From Candidatus Nanoarchaeia archaeon (GTDB taxonomy: Archaea > Nanobdellota > Nanobdellia > Woesearchaeales > JANQNC01): a DNA stretch of 32,000 nt. Within the stretch, counting starts at the first letter, position 1. Each line of letters begins with the position of its first letter. Both the position numbers and the translations under genes were made by a program. The notes under the pieces are model-generated. The model was given only the letters and a program-made list of their open reading frames with translations. It had not been told where the DNA came from and ran no database searches. Positions 3,052 to 19,244 of the stretch are shown here, in pieces. The stretch lies in contig JANQNC010000001.1 in the NCBI GenBank assembly GCA_028279745.1, forward strand, positions 900,001 through 932,000. The letters run 5' to 3'.

Positions 3052-4217
3052 GTTTAACAATTGAAAGGATAAGTACTTTTGAAGAGTTTAAGAAGTTAGA
3101 ACCCATTTGGAACACTTTTTTAGAGAAAACACCTGCAGATACTGTTTTTTTGACATATGAATTCTTAAGTGTGTGGTGGGAAGCATTTGGAAAAGACAAA
3201 AAGATGCTTGTTCTGTTAGTCAAAGATTCTGGAAAATTACTGGGGATAGCGCCTCTGATGATTGAAGGGGGAGATGTAAAGTTTATGAGAGATGTTCATT
3301 CTTACTATTTTGATTTTATAATATCTGAAAAAAACCAAGAGGTTTTGTTTGCAATTTTTAGTTATTTAGAGAAGAACATAGAGTTTGATAAGCTTATTTT
3401 AGAGGACGTACCCTTAGATTCAACAAATTTAGGCATGATTAAGAGTAAGAAATTTAAAAAATCAGGTTTTATTTTTTTAAAGTTTAATGAGCGAGTATCT
3501 CCTGTAATTAAGATAGAAGAAGAATGGGAGAACTATTATGGTGGTATACCAAAAAGTAGAAGGAAAAGCATAAGAAATAATCTTAGTAAACTTTCTAGAA
3601 TTGGTAACGTTAGATATTGTGATATTGTCAATAAAGAGTTGTTGCCCAGACTTATCAAAGATTTTTTCTTAATCGAGAGAGGTTCGTGGAAGCATACAGT
3701 AGGAAGATCAGTAACCGGAGATAAACAACAAATGTTTTTTTATAAGACGCTTGCAGAAAGAATGCAAGATAAAGGGCAGATATGTCTAGATTTTTTATTC
3801 GTAGACGAAAAACCTGCCTCTTTTGTGTATGACCTTGTTTACAAAGATAAGAGGTACAATCTAAAAACCTCTTTTTTGGAGGATTATGATGGGGCAGGTC
3901 CCGGCACTTACCTTGCTAAAGAAGTTGTTCAAAATAGTTTTAAAAAGGGACTAGATTGTTTAGATTTTTTGGGTGTTATGGATTCTAGGAAAAAATTATT
4001 CTCCAACTCTGAGAGGGCTGCAGAATATATTTATTTGTATAAAAGCACTATTAAAAATAAAGTTTATGTTTTGTTCAACCAACTGGTTTGGAAAAGATTG
4101 GGGAGGTGGGAGATTATTCAAAAGATAAAAAATAAACTTCTTGGTAAATTTCCCACTGAAGAAAAGAATAGAGAAGAATTCAAAAAATTACAAAATGAAA
4201 GACTTAACCAAGATTAG
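3048..4217 (+). CDS. FemAB/CelD/BioF2-like GNAT-fold acyltransferase
   Basis: The 389-aa product has an N-terminus (EEFKKLEPIWNTFL...FLTYEFLSVWWEAFGK...LGIAPLMIE) typical of CelD/BioF2-like acetyltransferase-domain proteins. It is paralogous to 26006-27079. ATGA overlap with the upstream gene. Confidence 0.6.
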   Translation: MSLTIERISTFEEFKKLEPIWNTFLEKTPADTVFLTYEFLSVWWEAFGKDKKMLVLLVKDSGKLLGIAPLMIEGGDVKFMRDVHSYYFDFIISEKNQEVLFAIFSYLEKNIEFDKLILEDVPLDSTNLGMIKSKKFKKSGFIFLKFNERVSPVIKIEEEWENYYGGIPKSRRKSIRNNLSKLSRIGNVRYCDIVNKELLPRLIKDFFLIERGSWKHTVGRSVTGDKQQMFFYKTLAERMQDKGQICLDFLFVDEKPASFVYDLVYKDKRYNLKTSFLEDYDGAGPGTYLAKEVVQNSFKKGLDCLDFLGVMDSRKKLFSNSERAAEYIYLYKSTIKNKVYVLFNQLVWKRLGRWEIIQKIKNKLLGKFPTEEKNREEFKKLQNERLNQD

Positions 4218-5208
4218 AAAAGAGATTCTTGAGTTTTCAAGAAAGACGTTTCCTGGAGAGGAAAGTAGAGAATGGACCTACTTTCAAAATAATTATGTGA
4301 ATCATCCCGATAAAAAAAGTCCAAAGTACACTGCAATTTTTGAAGGAGGCAAGATGATAGGTTTTTTGGGATATATTCCTATGAGATTAAAAATTGGAAA
4401 AGTTTTTTATAAATCTGGCTGGCAGCTTGACCAGTTTGTTTCAGAAGAAAAAAGAGGTAAAGGGATAGGCAGGAAGATACTTAACGAGGCATATTCGCTT
4501 TTTGATATAAACCTGGCAATTAAAAACAGTGAAGATGCTATAAGAATATATACTAAACAAGGGTGGAAGTATCATAGTATACCTCTTTATCTTAAAATAA
4601 TAAGTTTTAGAAGTTATCTCCCTAGGTTCTTGGAAAAGGTGGGTCTTGTTTATGTTCTGGATAAGGTTTACCAGACCCTATTTTGTAATAAGGAGAGTGA
4701 ATTAGATTTTGAAAGATTTGGTGAATGTGGGGAGGAGCTCAGAGAAGTATGGAAAAAGAATAGTAAGCACTATTCTCTTGTTAATGAAAGGGATAGAGAT
4801 TATCTCAACTGGAAATTTAAGAACTATGAAAAGTATTATGTAATAAACAAAGGAACTATTGAAGGTTACATAATCCTGAAGACAGAAAGAAAAGGGAAAA
4901 AGAAAATGCTGAGTATAATAGACTTTTTTATGGATCCAAATAAGAAGGGGATCATCAATTCTGTTATAAATTTCTTAAATAAAAAAGCAATAGACGTTAA
5001 TGCGGACGTAATACGGTTTTATATTTCAGACAAAAGATTAGTAAAACTTTTCAGAAAGCAAAAATTTATTAAACGGGAAGATGATTTGAGACTGATGTAC
5101 TATTCAAAAAAACATCTTGAACTGAACAGAAAGTATGAGGGTGTGTTAGTTACACTTTATGATTCGGATGGTGAGCCTTTCTTTTACAAAGAAGGAAAGA
5201 GAGATTAA
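4195..5208 (+). CDS. GNAT family N-acetyltransferase with a C-terminal extension
   Basis: Acetyl-CoA motif A QFVSEEKRGKGIGRKILNEA. I prefer the ATG at 4195 over the TTG at 4141 in the ORF track. It overlaps the upstream gene by 23 nt. Confidence 0.65.
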   Translation: MKDLTKIRKEILEFSRKTFPGEESREWTYFQNNYVNHPDKKSPKYTAIFEGGKMIGFLGYIPMRLKIGKVFYKSGWQLDQFVSEEKRGKGIGRKILNEAYSLFDINLAIKNSEDAIRIYTKQGWKYHSIPLYLKIISFRSYLPRFLEKVGLVYVLDKVYQTLFCNKESELDFERFGECGEELREVWKKNSKHYSLVNERDRDYLNWKFKNYEKYYVINKGTIEGYIILKTERKGKKKMLSIIDFFMDPNKKGIINSVINFLNKKAIDVNADVIRFYISDKRLVKLFRKQKFIKREDDLRLMYYSKKHLELNRKYEGVLVTLYDSDGEPFFYKEGKRD

Positions 5209-5212
5209 GAAA

Positions 5213-6598
5213 ATGTCATTACCTAAAAAAATATTAATCTTTTTTCTTTTAACTATCTTTATTCTTCCTGCTACTGCGATGGGTTTTGTCTTGTTGTGGG
5301 GTGCTTCTTACCAGAACCAAACTAAACTTTTAGTTGACACCGTAGATTATTATAATGATGGTTCTAGGACAGAGGTAGTACTGGTCGATGAAGGAGTATA
5401 TGTATATGATGCAAACGGCGCCTTATTGTGCAGTAATCCTGAAAGCGGATTTGTTGAAGGTAGAAATGGTAAGTGGATTACTAGCGTGTCTGATGTTTAT
5501 TCGGGGTTTTATGATCATGTCTTTGTCAGCGGAGATAGTGGGGAGAGTGCACCCCGAACTTTAACAAGAGTGTTCAGCAAGGATTGTGAGTTGGTGGAAG
5601 ATTTTCAAAAAAGCTATGTCTACACACCTTATTTGAGAGATGTTGACAGTGATGGCTGCGATGAACTGATATATGGTGGAAAAGCTTTAGATTTGGACCG
5701 TACAAAAAAAAGTAACGAATGGGTACAGTTATGGGATACTGAAGTGCCAAAGTTTATGGATGAAGTTTATGACTGGGATTTTGAGAATGGATTTTGTTAT
5801 AATGAATATATAGAAAATATAGTTTGTGTTAATGGATCTGGAAATGTTAAGTTTAGAAAGAAACCCTTAAACGGTTCCCGTAACATTGCTGTTGGGGATT
5901 TTGATGGAAAAGGAATAAAGAATGATGTAGCAACTGTGGGTGTAAAACCATCAGAAAAAGTACTTCGTCTTTATATAGGGGATGAATACGGTAAACAGTT
6001 AGTTTTAGTAGAAGAAAAGGGAAAGTCTACAAGTTTGCCAAGAGAGCTTGTGGCTGGGCAGATTGATTATACTTCTAAAACAGATGAGCTTGTTTTTGGT
6101 GCCGGCGGGGTAATAAATGCCTATGATTCTGAAGGACGTCTATTATGGAACTACGCTCCTGAAATGGGGGGTTATGCAGATAACATTATCATAGCTGATG
6201 TTGAGAATGATGGTAAGAACGAAGTTGTTGTAGCACAAGGTAGTAAGATCTATGTGTTGGATAATGAGGGGGGGCATTTATTTAACATGACTGTAAATGG
6301 AGTTTCGTTTAACTGGCACGGCACACACCCAACAATGCAAGTTCAAGATATTACTGGGGATTGTTGTAAAGAAATATTGTTATCAACTAATTCAGGGGAT
6401 TTTTATGTTTATGGGTTGGAAGAATGCGGAGTTAATGAATGCGATGAAGGAGATTTATTAAGAAAAAACAACTGTTTTAATGAAAATCAATCCCCTTTCA
6501 GAAATTATGAGGTAAAAGAGGAAAGTTTGTGGGATGTTATTCTACATTTATTTAAAGATAGATTTTATTTGATAAAGAAACTAGTTGAAATCAACTAA
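5213..6598 (+). CDS. Secreted FG-GAP/VCBS-like beta-propeller repeat protein
   Basis: From the ATG at 5213 the N-terminus MSLPKKILIFFLLTIFILPATAMG looks like a signal peptide. Calcium-loop-like repeats follow: DVDSDGCDELIYGG, VGDFDGKGIKNDVATVG, IADVENDGKNEVVVAQG and VQDITGDCCKEILLS. Confidence 0.65.
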   Translation: MSLPKKILIFFLLTIFILPATAMGFVLLWGASYQNQTKLLVDTVDYYNDGSRTEVVLVDEGVYVYDANGALLCSNPESGFVEGRNGKWITSVSDVYSGFYDHVFVSGDSGESAPRTLTRVFSKDCELVEDFQKSYVYTPYLRDVDSDGCDELIYGGKALDLDRTKKSNEWVQLWDTEVPKFMDEVYDWDFENGFCYNEYIENIVCVNGSGNVKFRKKPLNGSRNIAVGDFDGKGIKNDVATVGVKPSEKVLRLYIGDEYGKQLVLVEEKGKSTSLPRELVAGQIDYTSKTDELVFGAGGVINAYDSEGRLLWNYAPEMGGYADNIIIADVENDGKNEVVVAQGSKIYVLDNEGGHLFNMTVNGVSFNWHGTHPTMQVQDITGDCCKEILLSTNSGDFYVYGLEECGVNECDEGDLLRKNNCFNENQSPFRNYEVKEESLWDVILHLFKDRFYLIKKLVEIN

Positions 6599-6623
6599 GT
6601 AGTAGGATAAGAAGGAATCAAAA

Positions 6624-8096
6624 ATGTTAAAAGATCTAACCCGAGTTGGAAAACACAGCATCATCTATGGTTTAGGGGGTGTTGTGCAGAAACTAGTTGG
6701 ATTTTTAATGGTGCCTGTATACACAAGGTATCTTAGCCCAACAGATTATGGGGTGGCTGCACTAATCATGTTTACTGTAACTTTGGCAGGTATGTTATGG
6801 AACAACGCGTTGAACAGAACAATTTCAAGATTTTATTTTGATTATAAACGACAAAAGGAAAGAAACGCTGTGATAAGCACAAGCTTAGTAATCCAAACTA
6901 TATTTTCAGTTATCGTTTCAGCTGGAGTAATAATGTTTAGTTCAAAAATATCTTATCTTTTGTTTGACACTAGCAGATATGCATTATTTATCAATCTTGC
7001 GTTCATAGCCTTCTTGTTACAGTCTATTATAGAGATACCAATGACACTTTTAAGGTTAGTTGAAAAATCTGTCTTTTATTCGGTTATTAGTGTTGTACGT
7101 CTATTTGTTGCATTATTCTTGAACATTTTACTCATAGTTTTTTTGGATATGGGCCTTTTGGGTATATTTGTTAGTGGGGTAGTTACATCAGGACTTGTAT
7201 TCTTCTTACTGGTTCCAAAAACAATTTTCGAAACAGGTATTAAGTTTTCTATGAAAAAAGCAAGACACATGATGAAGTTTGCACTTCCCCTTGTCCCAGG
7301 GGGGCTGTTAATATTTGTGCTAATGAGGGCAGATGTTTTTTTATTACAAAAGTTGTCGACAACTGCGCAAGTGGGATTGTATAACTTGGGGATACAGTTG
7401 GGGACAGTGCTGATATATCTTATAGAACAGCCTTTTTTCTTGATATGGTACCCTTTTGTGTACTCTAGCTTAAAAAAACCAAAAATAAATAAAGTATTTT
7501 CAAGAATGCAAACTTATTTCTTTTTTATACTTATATTTTTTAGCTTATGCCTGGCAGTTTTGATTAAGCCAGTATTAAGTTTTCTTGTGGGGCCTGACTT
7601 TTTTGAAGTGTATAAGGTAGTTCCATTAATAGTTCTAGCATTTTTCTTTAGACCTCTTTCAGACTTTTTTAAGACGGGTTTACAGATAAAAAAGAAGACA
7701 AAAATGATTCCTTTAATTCTTGGGGTGGGAGTAATAATCAATCTTGCGTTAAACTTTATTTTAATACCGGGTATGGGTTATATGGGGGCAGCTGTTGCAA
7801 AATTATCAGCTTTTGCAGTTATAGCGTTAGTCGCTTATTTTATCTCTATAAAAATTTATAAAATAACACCTGAAAAGAGAGTTATTTTTGCTTTAATAGT
7901 TGCGATTGTGTACTATTTTGTGAGTTTGTTGATATCTGTCGAATCGATAGTGTTACAAATTACATTGGATGTGCTGTTTTTAATGACATTTCCTTTAGTA
8001 CTTTATCTGCTAAGAGTATTTAGGAAAGATGAAATTAAGAAAACAAAGGAGATTTTGAAAAAAATAAAGAACGTAAGGTCTTCAAAGATCAAATAA
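6624..8096 (+). CDS. Wzx-like oligosaccharide flippase (MOP/polysaccharide biosynthesis protein family)
   Basis: The 490-aa product is very hydrophobic and multi-spanning, with about 12-14 predicted helices by eye. It sits among glycosyltransferases. Confidence 0.8.
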   Translation: MLKDLTRVGKHSIIYGLGGVVQKLVGFLMVPVYTRYLSPTDYGVAALIMFTVTLAGMLWNNALNRTISRFYFDYKRQKERNAVISTSLVIQTIFSVIVSAGVIMFSSKISYLLFDTSRYALFINLAFIAFLLQSIIEIPMTLLRLVEKSVFYSVISVVRLFVALFLNILLIVFLDMGLLGIFVSGVVTSGLVFFLLVPKTIFETGIKFSMKKARHMMKFALPLVPGGLLIFVLMRADVFLLQKLSTTAQVGLYNLGIQLGTVLIYLIEQPFFLIWYPFVYSSLKKPKINKVFSRMQTYFFFILIFFSLCLAVLIKPVLSFLVGPDFFEVYKVVPLIVLAFFFRPLSDFFKTGLQIKKKTKMIPLILGVGVIINLALNFILIPGMGYMGAAVAKLSAFAVIALVAYFISIKIYKITPEKRVIFALIVAIVYYFVSLLISVESIVLQITLDVLFLMTFPLVLYLLRVFRKDEIKKTKEILKKIKNVRSSKIK

Positions 8097-8220
8097 TCTA
8101 TAAAGAGTTAGCTTGTTTAAGATATGACACTAGTAAGGGATTATTTATAATAATTTTTCTTATTTAAACGAAGGTAAAAAGTTATAAAACACTGTTAAAA
8201 ATGGGTTATTAACTGTTTAT

Positions 8221-9360
8221 TTGATGACTAAAATGGGAAAGATAAAAATATTGAGGATTGTTGATGAGTTTTTTAGAGCAGGTCTCCAGCAAGGTGTAAG
8301 AAACATAATATGTAACACAGAAACTAAAAAGTTTGAGAATGTAATCGTAAGTTTAAAAGGAGTAAATGAAGATATGCTGATCAAAGGAGTGAAAACTTAC
8401 GTTCTTAACAAAAAACCTGGTTTAGGGTGGGAGTTGCCTTTAAGAATAGCAAGGATAATCAAAAAAGAAAGACCTCACATACTGCAGATGCATAATATGG
8501 ATTCTTTGCAGCAAGGAATGCTTGCAACGTTGTTGTCTGATGTTCCAATAAAGATCTATGTCGATCACAACTCTTTTGAAAACAAACGATCAAAAAAAGC
8601 AGTACTGTTGAGCAGAATTCTTTCAAAAAGACTTGACAAAGCAATAACTGTGTCTGATGAAGTCCGAGAAAAAGTTGTTAAGGAGTTAGGGGTTAAAAGA
8701 AAAAAGGTAAAAACTATATTGAATGGGACTGACATAAGTAAGTTTGATAAAAAAATCAGTTTAGCTGGGTTAAGAAGTGAATTAGGAATAAGCAATAAAG
8801 ACAAGATAGTAACAATTGTGGCAGGCCTTAGAAAAATAAAAGATCATCTAACTTTGATCAAGGCATTTTCAACTGTTGTAAAAAAGGAAAAGAATGCAAA
8901 GCTAATAATAGTCGGGGTGGGTGAGGAAAAACCAAGAATCCAACAAACTATAGAAGAAGATATTTTGGAGAATAATGTGTTATTATTGGGATTAAGAGGA
9001 GATGTACCTGAAATTTTAGGAGTTACAGATGTTTCGGTTATATGTTCTTTATCTGAGGGGATTTCGCAAACAATAATGGAATCAATGGCAGCATCAAAAC
9101 CAGTTGTCGCAACAAATGTAGGGGGCAATCCTGTTTTGGTGGAAGAAGAGGTTAATGGACTACTTGTCCCTGTCAAGTCGTCTGATAAGTTAGCAGAGGC
9201 AATAGCGAGGTTGTTAGAAAATAAAAATCTAAGAGCGAAGATGGGAAAAGAAGGAAGAAAAAAGATTGAAGAATATTTTAATGTACAAAGAGTTTGCAAG
9301 GATTATGAGACATTGTATGTTGAGTTACTTAATAAAAAAGGAGTAAAATGTGCGGAATAG
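8221..9360 (+). CDS. Glycosyltransferase family 4 (GT-B)
   Basis: C-terminal E-x7-E region: SLSEGISQTIMESMAASKPVVATNVGGNPVLVEEEVNGLLVP. The start is ambiguous among TTG 8221, ATG 8224 and ATG 8233. Confidence 0.85.
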   Translation: MMTKMGKIKILRIVDEFFRAGLQQGVRNIICNTETKKFENVIVSLKGVNEDMLIKGVKTYVLNKKPGLGWELPLRIARIIKKERPHILQMHNMDSLQQGMLATLLSDVPIKIYVDHNSFENKRSKKAVLLSRILSKRLDKAITVSDEVREKVVKELGVKRKKVKTILNGTDISKFDKKISLAGLRSELGISNKDKIVTIVAGLRKIKDHLTLIKAFSTVVKKEKNAKLIIVGVGEEKPRIQQTIEEDILENNVLLLGLRGDVPEILGVTDVSVICSLSEGISQTIMESMAASKPVVATNVGGNPVLVEEEVNGLLVPVKSSDKLAEAIARLLENKNLRAKMGKEGRKKIEEYFNVQRVCKDYETLYVELLNKKGVKCAE

Positions 9361-17810: not shown

Positions 17811-17822
17811 CTCCACTAAATC

Positions 17823-17830
17823 TTTATAAA
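17823..17830 (+). promoter_or_regulatory. Archaeal TATA box for the tRNA gene
   Basis: TTTATAAA is centred about 27-28 nt upstream of G17855, the first base of the acceptor stem. That is the usual archaeal TATA-to-start spacing. Confidence 0.55.
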
Positions 17831-17874
17831 TAAAATACTTGTTCTTTAATGTATGAACCTGTAGCGCAGCCTGG

Positions 17875-17964
17875 CAACTGCCACTGTCAGTTGACACCAG
17901 GAGGCGACTCCTAGTGCTTCGCACCGGAGTCCCCTGGGAACACTTGATCGTGTAAGTTGGGCAA
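17875..17964 (+). other. tRNA intron 1 (90 nt), D-loop, after G18G19
   Basis: BHB motif: central helix G17869-C17962, C17870-G17961, C17871-G17960, U17872-G17959. The 3-nt bulges are GG|C (17873-17875) and AA|A (17963-17965). The inner helix pairs AACU 17876-17879 with AGUU 17955-17958. Boundaries could shift by 1-2 nt. Confidence 0.65.
17904..17933 (+). repeat. 30-nt hairpin module, copy 1 (inside intron 1)
   Basis: GCGACTCCTAGTGCTTCGCACCGGAGTCCC matches copy 2 at 28 of 30 positions. It folds as GACUCC/GGAGUC plus GUGC/GCAC, with an asymmetric UA/C internal loop. Confidence 0.9.
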
Positions 17965-17983
17965 ATAGCGCAATAGCCTCCTA

Positions 17984-17999
17984 AACTTAAGTTGAAGAC
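17984..17999 (+). other. tRNA intron 2 (16 nt), canonical 37/38 position
   Basis: The anticodon stem AUAGC/GCUAU flanks 23 nt, and only the 6+1 split gives U33 and a purine at 37 (loop CUCCUAA). The BHB is relaxed: the central helix CUCC/GAAG has one C-A mismatch, and the bulges are UA|A and AC|A. Confidence 0.7.
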
Positions 18000-18021
18000 A
18001 GCTATAGGTCGAGGGTTCGAA

Positions 18022-18117
18022 ACAGCTGGTTACGCTCAGCTGGCACGCAAAAAGCGACTCCTAGTGTTACGCACCGGAGTCCCTTGTGATTTGTCAGTTA
18101 GTAACTGTTGACGAAAG
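18022..18117 (+). other. tRNA intron 3 (96 nt), T-loop 59/60
   Basis: Near-ideal BHB. The outer helix is the T-stem GAGGG/CCCUC, and the central helix pairs UUCG 18016-18019 with CGAA 18112-18115. The bulges are AA|A (18020-18022) and AG|U (18116-18118). Splicing yields the canonical T-loop UUCGAAU. Confidence 0.75.
18054..18083 (+). repeat. 30-nt hairpin module, copy 2 (inside intron 3)
   Basis: GCGACTCCTAGTGTTACGCACCGGAGTCCC. One of the two differences turns a C-G pair into U-G; the other is in the apical loop. The copies are 150 nt apart in direct orientation. Confidence 0.9.
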
Positions 18118-18140
18118 TCCCTCCAGGTTCGTATTTTAAG

Positions 18141-19244
18141 ATGATACAAGAAGCATACCAGATAGCAAAAGAGAATTTGAGGAATTCGTATAGTGATAAA
18201 GGGGTGTTAGCAGGGACAACACACTTTTCAGACTACTGGGCAAGAGACGGACTCTATGCCGTATTTGGAATGTGTGAATTGGGGGATTTTGAAAAAATAA
18301 AAAAAGAGCTGCTTTTGTTGCTTAATTATCAGAAAAAGGATGGGCAGCTGCCTTTAAGGGTTGGACAGAAAAGTATGATCTTGAACTTTTTAGGAATTAA
18401 AGGTAAGATACAAGCAAGATATACAGAAGACAAAAAAGATAATGTTCCAACAGATCAAAATTCTTTGTTTATAATTGCATTAAAACATTATGTTGATAAG
18501 ACTGGAGACATTGATTTTGTAAAAAAGAACCATTCAAAGATAAAAAAAGTGATAGACTGGTATGGTGCAGGAGATCTGGTTGTTGAAGATGAATATTGCT
18601 CGTGGGCAGATAACATAAGAAAAAAAGGAAAAGTGCTGTATACGAATGTACTTTACTGTAAGGCATTATCAGATATGCATAAAATGGAGAATAAGCTGGG
18701 ACATAAATCAGAGTATATGAAAAAATCAGTTTTTATTAAAGAGAAAATCAACAAAGAATTCTGGAGCGGAAACTACTATTCAGACTGGATAGACTCTGAA
18801 GGGCGACATGATTATTTTACTGCCTGTGGAAACTTATTAGCAATAATATTTGATGTTGCAGACAAAGAGAAAGCATATAAGATACTTTATTTTATGGAAA
18901 AGAATAAGTTAGATGGGGGGTTCACAACACTTAATGCATTTCCAAGATACAAAAAAGAAGAAAAGTCAGCATTACTGAGATTTTTCGGGATGGATGACTA
19001 TCAAGACAATGTATACTGGTTATGGCCTGGCTGTTTGGATATAATAGCAAGACACAAAACAGGATTTAAGTATGAAGATCTTGTCAGGAAGATGTCAGAA
19101 AAGATTGTAGAGCATAAAGGAGTTTATGAAGTTTATAGTTTGGATGGGAAACCACTTAAGAGATTATTTTATAGGTCAGAAAAGAATTTTGCATGGAGTT
19201 CGTCTCTTTTTATACATGCTGTTCACGAAACAAAACTATTTTGA
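18141..19244 (+). CDS. Amylo-alpha-1,6-glucosidase (GDE_C)-like (alpha/alpha)6-barrel glycoside hydrolase
   Basis: The HFSDYWARDGLYAVFGM motif and overall pattern resemble archaeal glycogen-debranching-enzyme-related proteins. I prefer the ATG at 18141, because 18108-18140 lies inside or next to the tRNA gene. Confidence 0.65.
   Translation: MIQEAYQIAKENLRNSYSDKGVLAGTTHFSDYWARDGLYAVFGMCELGDFEKIKKELLLLLNYQKKDGQLPLRVGQKSMILNFLGIKGKIQARYTEDKKDNVPTDQNSLFIIALKHYVDKTGDIDFVKKNHSKIKKVIDWYGAGDLVVEDEYCSWADNIRKKGKVLYTNVLYCKALSDMHKMENKLGHKSEYMKKSVFIKEKINKEFWSGNYYSDWIDSEGRHDYFTACGNLLAIIFDVADKEKAYKILYFMEKNKLDGGFTTLNAFPRYKKEEKSALLRFFGMDDYQDNVYWLWPGCLDIIARHKTGFKYEDLVRKMSEKIVEHKGVYEVYSLDGKPLKRLFYRSEKNFAWSSSLFIHAVHETKLF

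Follow-up and report, generated by a model that had tools for sequence, protein, structure and literature searches.

The 32,000-nucleotide (nt) stretch of DNA considered here, hereafter the window, comes from a Candidatus Nanoarchaeia archaeon (contig JANQNC010000001.1 of assembly GCA_028279745.1, forward-strand positions 900,001 to 932,000) and is cited in its own numbering throughout. At 17855-18131 it carries what is very probably a functional transfer RNA (tRNA) gene of a low-GC archaeon, specifying tRNA-Arg(CCU) and split into four exons by three introns, each of which is predicted to be excised at a bulge-helix-bulge (BHB) motif. A multi-intron archaeal tRNA gene is in itself of an already known kind; the new part is a conserved hairpin module that is shared by introns 1 and 3 and recurs at other loci, both within and outside tRNA introns. 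The features of the gene are as follows:

17823-17830, plus strand: TATA box (TTTATAAA), read from the sequence, its centre ~28 nt 5' of tRNA G1
17855-17874, plus strand: exon 1, comprising the 5' strands of the acceptor stem and D-stem and the D-loop to G19 (from in-silico splicing and ARAGORN)
17875-17964, plus strand: intron 1, 90 nt, in the D-loop between G19 and A20
17965-17983, plus strand: exon 2, A20-A37, with the anticodon CCU (from ARAGORN on the spliced product and comparison with the orthologous locus L031)
17984-17999, plus strand: intron 2, 16 nt, at the canonical position 37/38, with a relaxed BHB
18000-18021, plus strand: exon 3, A38-A59, comprising the 3' strand of the anticodon stem, the variable loop, the 5' strand of the T-stem and most of the T-loop (same basis as exon 2)
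18022-18117, plus strand: intron 3, 96 nt, in the T-loop at position 59/60
18118-18131, plus strand: exon 4, comprising U60, the 3' strands of the T-stem and acceptor stem and the discriminator G73 (same basis as exon 2)
18134-18137, plus strand: T4 tract, probable transcription stop, read from the sequence

The gene lies within the window's only long GC-rich intergenic gap (17811-18140, 330 nt, GC 0.47), and the block itself has a GC content of 52.7% compared with 34.4% over the whole 32-kb window. The original prediction, made from the sequence alone, had described just such a GC-rich block of about 277 nt in AT-rich DNA, with a TATA box upstream and a short T-tract downstream, and both signals are present as it stated, the sequence TATTTT following directly 3' of the last base of the gene. 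Removal of the three intervals that it had proposed as introns gives the identical 75-mer, for which ARAGORN returns tRNA-Arg(cct) and whose unconstrained minimum free energy (MFE) fold is the cloverleaf. All of the stem pairs are intact in this molecule (21/21), and every conserved tRNA position, as read by eye, is in place: U8, A14, G15:C48, G18G19, A20, A21, U33, G53, U54U55C56, A58 and C61. The claim of a complete set of near-universal positions, the G15:C48 pair included, is hence confirmed directly from the sequence. The terminal CCA is not encoded at the end of exon 4, and introns account for ~73% of the gene. On the unspliced genomic sequence ARAGORN finds no tRNA, with or without its intron mode, and Rfam yields neither a tRNA nor a family over the whole region at the gathering threshold or at E<=10; the original prediction had named a match of the whole region to another RNA family as an outcome that would count against it. 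The gene is thus, as anticipated, missed by standard callers, and the open reading frame (ORF) track does open a coding sequence inside it: a TTG-start ORF at 18108 overlaps the tRNA.

The original prediction had further placed each junction between 3-nt bulges flanking a 4-bp helix. When tested in the register in which the 5' exon ends at bulge position 2 and the central helix has 4 bp, every junction displays a BHB or an accepted relaxed form of it; the claim stands in full for introns 1 and 3, which are canonical, whereas intron 2 has only a relaxed version. In intron 1, the central helix 17869-17872/17959-17962 (GCCU/GGGC, 4/4) is accompanied by the bulges 17873-17875 (GGC) and 17963-17965 (AAA) and by the inner helix 17876-17879/17955-17958 (AACU/AGUU). 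In intron 3, the central helix 18016-18019/18112-18115 (UUCG/CGAA, 4/4) and the bulges 18020-18022 (AAA) and 18116-18118 (AGU) are combined with the T-stem as the outer helix and an inner helix displaced by one unpaired A. The central helix of intron 2 (CUCC/GAAG) pairs at 3/4 positions, with a C.A mismatch, between the bulges UAA and ACA and with the anticodon stem as the outer helix; its junction can be slid by 1 nt with the product unchanged, and the helix is mismatched at the C34 position in 3/3 orthologues. A fold of the unspliced region constrained to the cloverleaf and the three BHBs has an energy of -98.6 kcal/mol, less than 7 kcal/mol from the unconstrained MFE of -105.4 kcal/mol, and in the latter fold the acceptor stem and the complete BHB of intron 3 are already present. 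A generic geometric BHB finder was dropped, as it returned dozens of chance matches per locus and missed true introns with an offset inner helix.

The strongest support for the exon/intron assignment comes from two orthologous metagenome loci, L031 and L032, which were fetched as the loci of relatives of the glycosidase encoded immediately downstream (protein P0001; 65% and 61% identity, respectively), with this gene serving as the anchor of synteny. In L031 the equivalent gene, whose spliced product is likewise tRNA-Arg(cct), occupies the corresponding place and is interrupted at all three of the positions used in the window, by introns of 88, 69 and 91 nt. Its exons are identical to those of the window at 67/75 positions, whereas its introns match at 56/90 (intron 1), 15/69 (intron 2) and 71/96 (intron 3). 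In L032 the gene for this tRNA has a single intron (22 nt, in the anticodon loop), and nothing interrupts the D- and T-loops at the predicted junctions 1 and 3; this version is detected by the Rfam tRNA model at 50.3 bits. Hence, the exons are conserved while the introns vary or are absent, and the choice of intervals is independently validated by the contiguity of L032 at two of the three junctions. Exon 1 is identical at 19/20 positions in both orthologues, and the anticodon-loop intron occurs in all three (16, 69 and 22 nt). With orthologous genes at two further loci the arrangement is not a product of chance, and the interpretation given in the original prediction is supported. The same TTTATAAA also stands 32-34 nt 5' of G1 in L031 and L032, so that a TATA box is present in all three orthologues, and a T4 tract also lies 3' of the gene in L031. 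Compensatory stem changes in L031 occur at the linear pairs 30:44 and 52:66 (U-A to C-G and A-U to G-C), each of which joins nucleotides of different exons. In the intron-1 BHB of L031, an exonic C-to-U change is matched by an intronic G-to-A change (GCCU/GGGC to GCUU/GAGC), and the inner helix, though of another sequence, keeps its pairing (AGAUGGU/AUCAUCU). Such compensatory changes would be unexpected without selection on the spliced product.

Certain observations weigh against this interpretation of the locus. The mismatch in intron 2 and the 1-nt offset in intron 3 might be rejected by a strictly specific splicing endonuclease (EndA), and no EndA gene is found in the 32-kb window. In the three orthologues 100% of the cloverleaf pairing is kept, three pairs being compensatory, but with just three sequences this covariation is weak, being matched by 23/500 shuffles, and the energy-only RNAalifold consensus of the three spliced tRNAs prefers a non-cloverleaf centre. 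That alternative centre was rejected, as it fits the substitutions worse (97.3% paired, two broken cells and one compensatory pair). We consider the contiguous sequence of L032 to be a stronger argument for the gene than the covariation of three sequences.

By analogy with established archaeal tRNA processing, we infer that transcription from the TATA box at 17823-17830 would yield a precursor of ~280 nt, whose fold would put each exon-intron junction in a BHB motif. EndA would then cleave at the six bulge sites, an RtcB-type ligase would join the four exons into the 75-nt tRNA, and the CCA would be added after splicing.

Two further features of these introns deserve mention. The 5' strand of each long intron has two possible partners: a local one, giving a 5' hairpin, and a similar segment by the 3' splice site, which extends the BHB (18023-18043 with 18097-18107 and 17876-17894 with 17954-17959); both alternative pairings are preserved in L031 despite sequence change. 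These could point to a folding switch or could be the trace of a flanking duplication. L031 also displays C/D box-like motifs: CUGAUGA, 12 nt and CUGA in the 3' part of intron 1 (L031:2446-2476), and CUGAUGA ... CUGA closed by GGCU/GGCU in the 69-nt intron 2 (L031:2496-2564). All seven sub-threshold Rfam matches of the L031 region are to C/D box snoRNA/sRNA (small RNA) families, mostly archaeal, with scores of 9-15 bits against gathering thresholds of 38-45. These motifs may represent intron-hosted C/D sRNAs.

Introns 1 and 3 of the window have a 30-nt block in common (17904-17933 and 18054-18083), for which 0 chance matches are expected. This block belongs to a larger element with two core copies in the gene:

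17892-17941, plus strand: element core copy 1, in intron 1; covariance-model score 66.5 bits
18042-18091, plus strand: element core copy 2, in intron 3, with its hairpin at 18056-18081; 55.9 bits

Searching reference genomes with the hairpin recovered nine loci in seven metagenome-assembled genomes (MAGs), six labelled Woesearchaeota or Nanoarchaeia and one Methanosarcinales, and a looser pattern applied to metagenomes added 19 more, making 28 further loci in all. Including the window, the element numbers 30 copies with 25 distinct sequences, about half of them in tRNA introns; no description of it was found in Rfam scans or in the searchable literature. Host tRNA identities were assigned by ARAGORN after excision of the element, and we report only those hosts that came out clean after a single excision or were checked by hand, as ARAGORN's free placement of introns gives spurious isotype calls in multi-intron hosts. 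The contexts of the element are the following:

Intron at position 59/60: tRNA-Arg(CCU) of the window; Ala(GGC) in L010/L029; Glu(CUC) in L014; Val(CAC) in L015/18/23; Ile(UAU) in L016, with a second intron; Val(UAC) in L017 and L025, with a second intron; tRNA-Leu in L005, with three introns; a truncated host in L004
Anticodon-loop intron (near 37/38): tRNA-Gly(GCC) in L011 and L019
D-loop intron: intron 1 of the window
After a duplicated tRNA-Gly 5' fragment: L020 and L021/L026
After or near a tRNA 3' end: L028, L002 and L022
Between protein genes, in either orientation: L003/24, L006/13/27, L007, L008, L009 and L012

For L011 and L019, tRNA-Gly(GCC) was read off the sequence by eye, the ARAGORN calls being inconsistent there. 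All tRNA-embedded copies are in the sense orientation. Highly similar introns are thus shared by tRNAs that differ in identity, both at equivalent and at non-equivalent positions, as in a transposed tRNA intron family as understood by Fujishima 2010. Over its first 31 nt, intron 3 of L031 matches the beginning of the L015 tRNA-Val(CAC) intron without a difference.

Across these copies the element has a common architecture: a 5' hairpin, an A-rich linker (GUAAAAAGC) and a main hairpin whose base is conserved (a covarying 3-bp stem, a C.C mismatch and GAC/GUC) and whose apex is variable. In copy 1, the lower stem is formed by 17902-17904/17933-17935, the C.C mismatch by 17905/17932 and the hairpin by 17906-17931. 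The lower stem, which lies outside the hairpin fixed by the search patterns, occurs as AGG/CCU, AUG/CAU, AAA/UUU, AAG/CUU, AGA/UCU and AUA/UAU, with 11 compensatory cells compared with 1.9 in shuffles (0/500) and 99.3% of its cells paired compared with 29-55% in slid controls. Diverged copies recovered by the covariance-model search retain the linker and the base, AAAAAGC-AGG-C-GAC ... GUC-C-CCU, and have apical stems that are unrelated in sequence and still paired; the apex in intron 1 of L031 also differs from that of the window.

Several of these loci show further peculiarities. L005 harbors a second three-intron tRNA, a tRNA-Leu on the minus strand (oriented ~6352-6620) with introns in the D-loop, the anticodon loop and at 59/60; it comes from a different Woesearchaeota MAG (NYYS01), and its junctions are ambiguous, ARAGORN giving the anticodon CAA or AAG depending on the choice made. 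L022 includes a complete archaeal rRNA operon (3385-8851), in whose 16S-23S spacer there is a two-intron tRNA, Ala(UGC) by sequence reading, with a duplicate of the tRNA 3' end 73 nt downstream and an apparent stray 3' exon of another tRNA. The element copy of this locus (6803-6830) lies between the two-intron tRNA and the 23S gene, ~350 nt before the latter. L002 and L006 (CAYGYA010000060 and CAYGYA010000002) belong to the MAG labelled 'uncultured Methanosarcinales archaeon', whose tRNA-Ala locus is syntenic with the Woesearchaeota locus L010, the neighboring proteins of ~560 aa having closely similar N-termini; the label or the binning of this MAG may be wrong. Hairpin modules of the A5...T5 type (e.g., CAAAAGCAAAGCTTTTG) also recur, namely in L019 (oriented 6760-6810), where they are nested in the loop of the element's 5' hairpin, in L003:900-950 and in L002:5330-5420; these may be a second family of mini-insertions.

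Signs of spread at the DNA level come from the flanks of the element and from orthologous sites. Direct duplications bracket it in L012:1511-1635 (27 nt, at a spacing of 98 nt), in L026:8633-8777 (44 nt, at a spacing of 101, including tRNA-Gly nt ~1-20) and in L009:800-1255 (172 nt, at a spacing of 284, where element and gene together form a tandem array). L010 and L022 each have a second copy of a tRNA 3' end further downstream, and tRNA fragments are found alongside such duplicated ends in the related loci. The tRNA-Gly of L020 has a short anticodon-loop intron of ~24 nt, and that of L011 has the same 5' hairpin plus an insert of ~61 nt, which, by eye, is bracketed by similar segments of ~11 nt. 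Likewise, the tRNA-Arg gene's D- and T-loop sites are filled in the window and L031 and empty in L032. Because of this distribution and these flanking duplications, we propose, tentatively, that introns 1 and 3 are copies of an undescribed, non-coding but structured mobile intron-forming element of ~60-110 nt in archaea of the Woesearchaeota/Nanoarchaeia type. Such an element family would spread at the DNA level, often inserting into hairpin-loop sequences—tRNA loops, existing short introns, terminator-like hairpins and an rRNA spacer—and duplicating the flanking sequence as it does so. It would persist in tRNA genes because pairing of its ends with the D-, anticodon- or T-loop creates a BHB, such that the copy is excised from the RNA without harm. 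The family may instead, or as well, be a new kind of small RNA whose production relies on the processing of tRNA.

The mobile-element proposal also has evidence against it. We saw no transposase, integrase or other ORF with the element and no polymorphism within a single population, and the collection of viral contigs gave 0 matches to it. The invariance of the upper hairpin among the copies found with the patterns is moreover partly forced by those patterns. Carriage of the element by a virus or plasmid was rejected on the absence of matches in the viral contig collection. The lengths of the duplications vary (27, 44, 172 and ~11 nt), and the element therefore does not fit a classical insertion sequence (IS) or a miniature inverted-repeat transposable element (MITE); no terminal inverted repeats were recognized in it, though no systematic search for them was made. 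In L010 (oriented 4307-4600), the tRNA-Ala 3' end CGCAGGGTCCA is repeated ~100 nt downstream, past a run of A/T-rich hairpins; the repeat is reminiscent of an attachment site, and an integrated element is not evident.

A somewhat less probable explanation of the long introns is that they are kept as hosts of a functional small RNA; it is compatible with the tRNA gene, and its only competitor is the idea that introns 1 and 3 are selfish mobile introns. Splicing would release this RNA, probably in circular form, for binding to a protein or action in trans, a precedent being the C/D sRNA in the tRNA-Trp intron of Euryarchaeota (PMC12558985). The conservation of the hairpin base and linker, with covariation, across loci with unrelated flanks would agree with this, as would the copy in the rRNA operon spacer. 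The stand-alone copies in L006, L007, L008 and L009 resemble an independent gene, as they have a closing helix followed by T5-T7 and AT-rich boxes upstream. Rfam gathering scans of all the related loci found only rRNA and tRNA, which led us to reject RNase P, SRP or another known RNA for these stand-alone copies. Against a hosted function, the apical hairpin is freely replaced, even between the orthologous introns of the window and L031; L032 lives without introns 1 and 3; and copy number and location differ between genomes. Neither C/D boxes (C box RUGAUGA, D box CUGA) nor H/ACA boxes occur in the copies of the window, and there is no Rfam match (E<=10) inside the gene, such that a guide RNA of either kind was rejected for these introns. 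The uniform sense orientation of the tRNA-embedded copies could be taken in favor of a hosted RNA, but it is needed for splicing anyway and does not discriminate.

The remaining alternatives fare far worse. It is very unlikely that the locus is a dead tRNA-Arg pseudogene, broken by repeat insertions and neither expressed nor spliced, even though one gene has received two insertions of a single repeat family, its relative in L032 is without them, and tRNA fragments and duplicated tRNA ends litter the related loci. This is contradicted by the intactness of the conserved tRNA positions and all 21 stem pairs, by the conservation of the promoter and T-tract, and by the retention of the three-intron structure in L031, with compensation in stem and BHB, despite a divergence at which the neighboring proteins are 65% identical. 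More improbable still is that the intron hairpin mimics helix H95 of 23S rRNA, the stem of the sarcin-ricin loop, and serves as a decoy or binding site for an H95-binding factor. The hairpin GACUCCUAGUGCUUCGCACCGGAGUC does share the 8-nt blocks CUCCUAGU and ACCGGAGU with H95 of Escherichia coli (a sequence verified by 100% identity in 5,426 genomes), but it lacks the GAGA tetraloop, having a loop of CUUCG or a variant, and G-C replaces the A.G pair of the bulged-G motif (AGUA/GAA). H95 of the element-carrying L022 (CCCUCUAGUACGAGAGGAACGGGGG) is a much poorer match in which both flanking blocks differ, and the orthologous and diverged copies swap exactly these blocks for unrelated pairing sequences. 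The likeness of the hairpins (17906-17931 and 18056-18081) to H95, noticed post hoc, is hence probably due to chance. Least credible of all is that the region represents some other structured non-coding RNA, ~277 nt long and left unspliced, or a pair of neighboring small RNA genes: it does fold strongly (the MFE given above), and three freely chosen intervals could yield tRNA-like products, as shown by the spurious results of ARAGORN's free intron placement elsewhere, but L032 is contiguous at two of the three junctions and detected by the Rfam tRNA model, no Rfam family covers the whole region, and the exons are conserved where the introns have diverged.

With regard to the host, the window encodes the archaea-specific pair GatE (701 bits, cutoff 456) and GatD (470 bits, cutoff 310), and these equivalog matches above their cutoffs mark the host as archaeal. 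A CDC48-type ATPase is also encoded in it. As the relatives of its proteins and the element-bearing contigs are labelled Woesearchaeota, Nanoarchaeota or Nanoarchaeia, the host is probably a DPANN member of the Woesearchaeota/Nanoarchaeia group. DPANN versions of EndA with an extra L3 loop go together with increased disruption of tRNA genes (PMC5829648). The gene adjoining the tRNA is:

18141-19244, plus strand: GDE_C/GH116-like glycosidase gene, outside the tRNA; its product is identical to the 367-aa database protein P0001

Its start, according to the database protein, is the ATG at 18141 rather than the TTG at 18108. Two short-read contigs of Logan run SRR20820740 break within the tRNA gene, L001 ending and L030 starting inside it; these breaks are probably caused by the 30-nt block that the two long introns have in common.

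The original prediction regarded three-intron archaeal tRNA genes as rare, which overstates the case: more than half of the tRNA genes of the Asgard lineages Atabeyarchaeia and Freyarchaeia have several introns (PMC11291895). The multi-intron tRNAs of Thermoproteales, ARMAN/Micrarchaeota and Atabeyarchaeia/Freyarchaeia are like the present gene in having BHB introns at non-canonical positions, and the known examples occur alongside EndA variants of broad specificity and escape simple tRNA finders (PMC4090602, PMC5829648, PMC11291895). They differ from it in that here the host appears to be a DPANN archaeon of the Woesearchaeota/Nanoarchaeia type, ~73% of the gene is intron and two of the three introns are paralogous. 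For the transposed intron families of Thermoproteales (a 2010 study, cited per PMC4090602), spread at the DNA level is presumed and the mechanism unexplained, as in the present case. Unlike in those families, the module described here also occurs outside introns—immediately past tRNA 3' ends, behind a repeated tRNA 5' fragment, within an rRNA spacer and between protein genes—and three of its copies are bracketed by duplications of 27, 44 and 172 nt; we found no report of extra-intronic copies or bracketing duplications for the Thermoproteales families.

Other parallels are more partial. The C/D sRNA in the tRNA-Trp intron of Haloferax, Pyrococcus and Halobacterium is, like the module, a structured RNA in a BHB intron, and is released, often in circular form, by EndA and ligase (PMC12558985); the introns of the window are without C/D boxes, and only L031 has C/D-like motifs, which are sub-threshold. 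In the tRNA-Thr of Caldiarchaeum subterraneum (PMC3293823), a 5' fragment and the full tRNA form a repeat around an insert, an arrangement linked to intron gain. L020, L021 and L026 share this layout for tRNA-Gly, but the Caldiarchaeum insert is 1.9 kb long with a putative recombinase, whereas those here are ~57-110 nt with no ORF. The same distribution of introns over three arms and the same dependence on BHB-like motifs are seen in a eukaryotic nuclear gene, whose endonuclease differs and for which a shared intron element has not been reported.

These findings bear on how the genomes of such archaea are read. A tRNA required for AGG codons is invisible to both ARAGORN and the Rfam tRNA model, and genes of this kind affect estimates of genome completeness and statements of 'missing' tRNAs for DPANN archaea, in line with the earlier expectation that undetected disrupted tRNAs exist in these lineages (PMC5829648); they can also fragment short-read assemblies. 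The tRNA-Arg orthologues with three, three and one introns, together with the tRNA-Gly series, provide comparisons of filled and empty sites for intron gain or loss outside Thermoproteales. Reviews call the mechanism by which BHB introns spread unknown (PMC4090602), and the combination of extra-intronic copies, a covarying structure and flanking duplications offers a tractable system for studying their movement between tRNA genes. If the module is indeed a mobile element, these loci would show intron gain in progress and would open a route to the mechanism of archaeal tRNA intron transposition.

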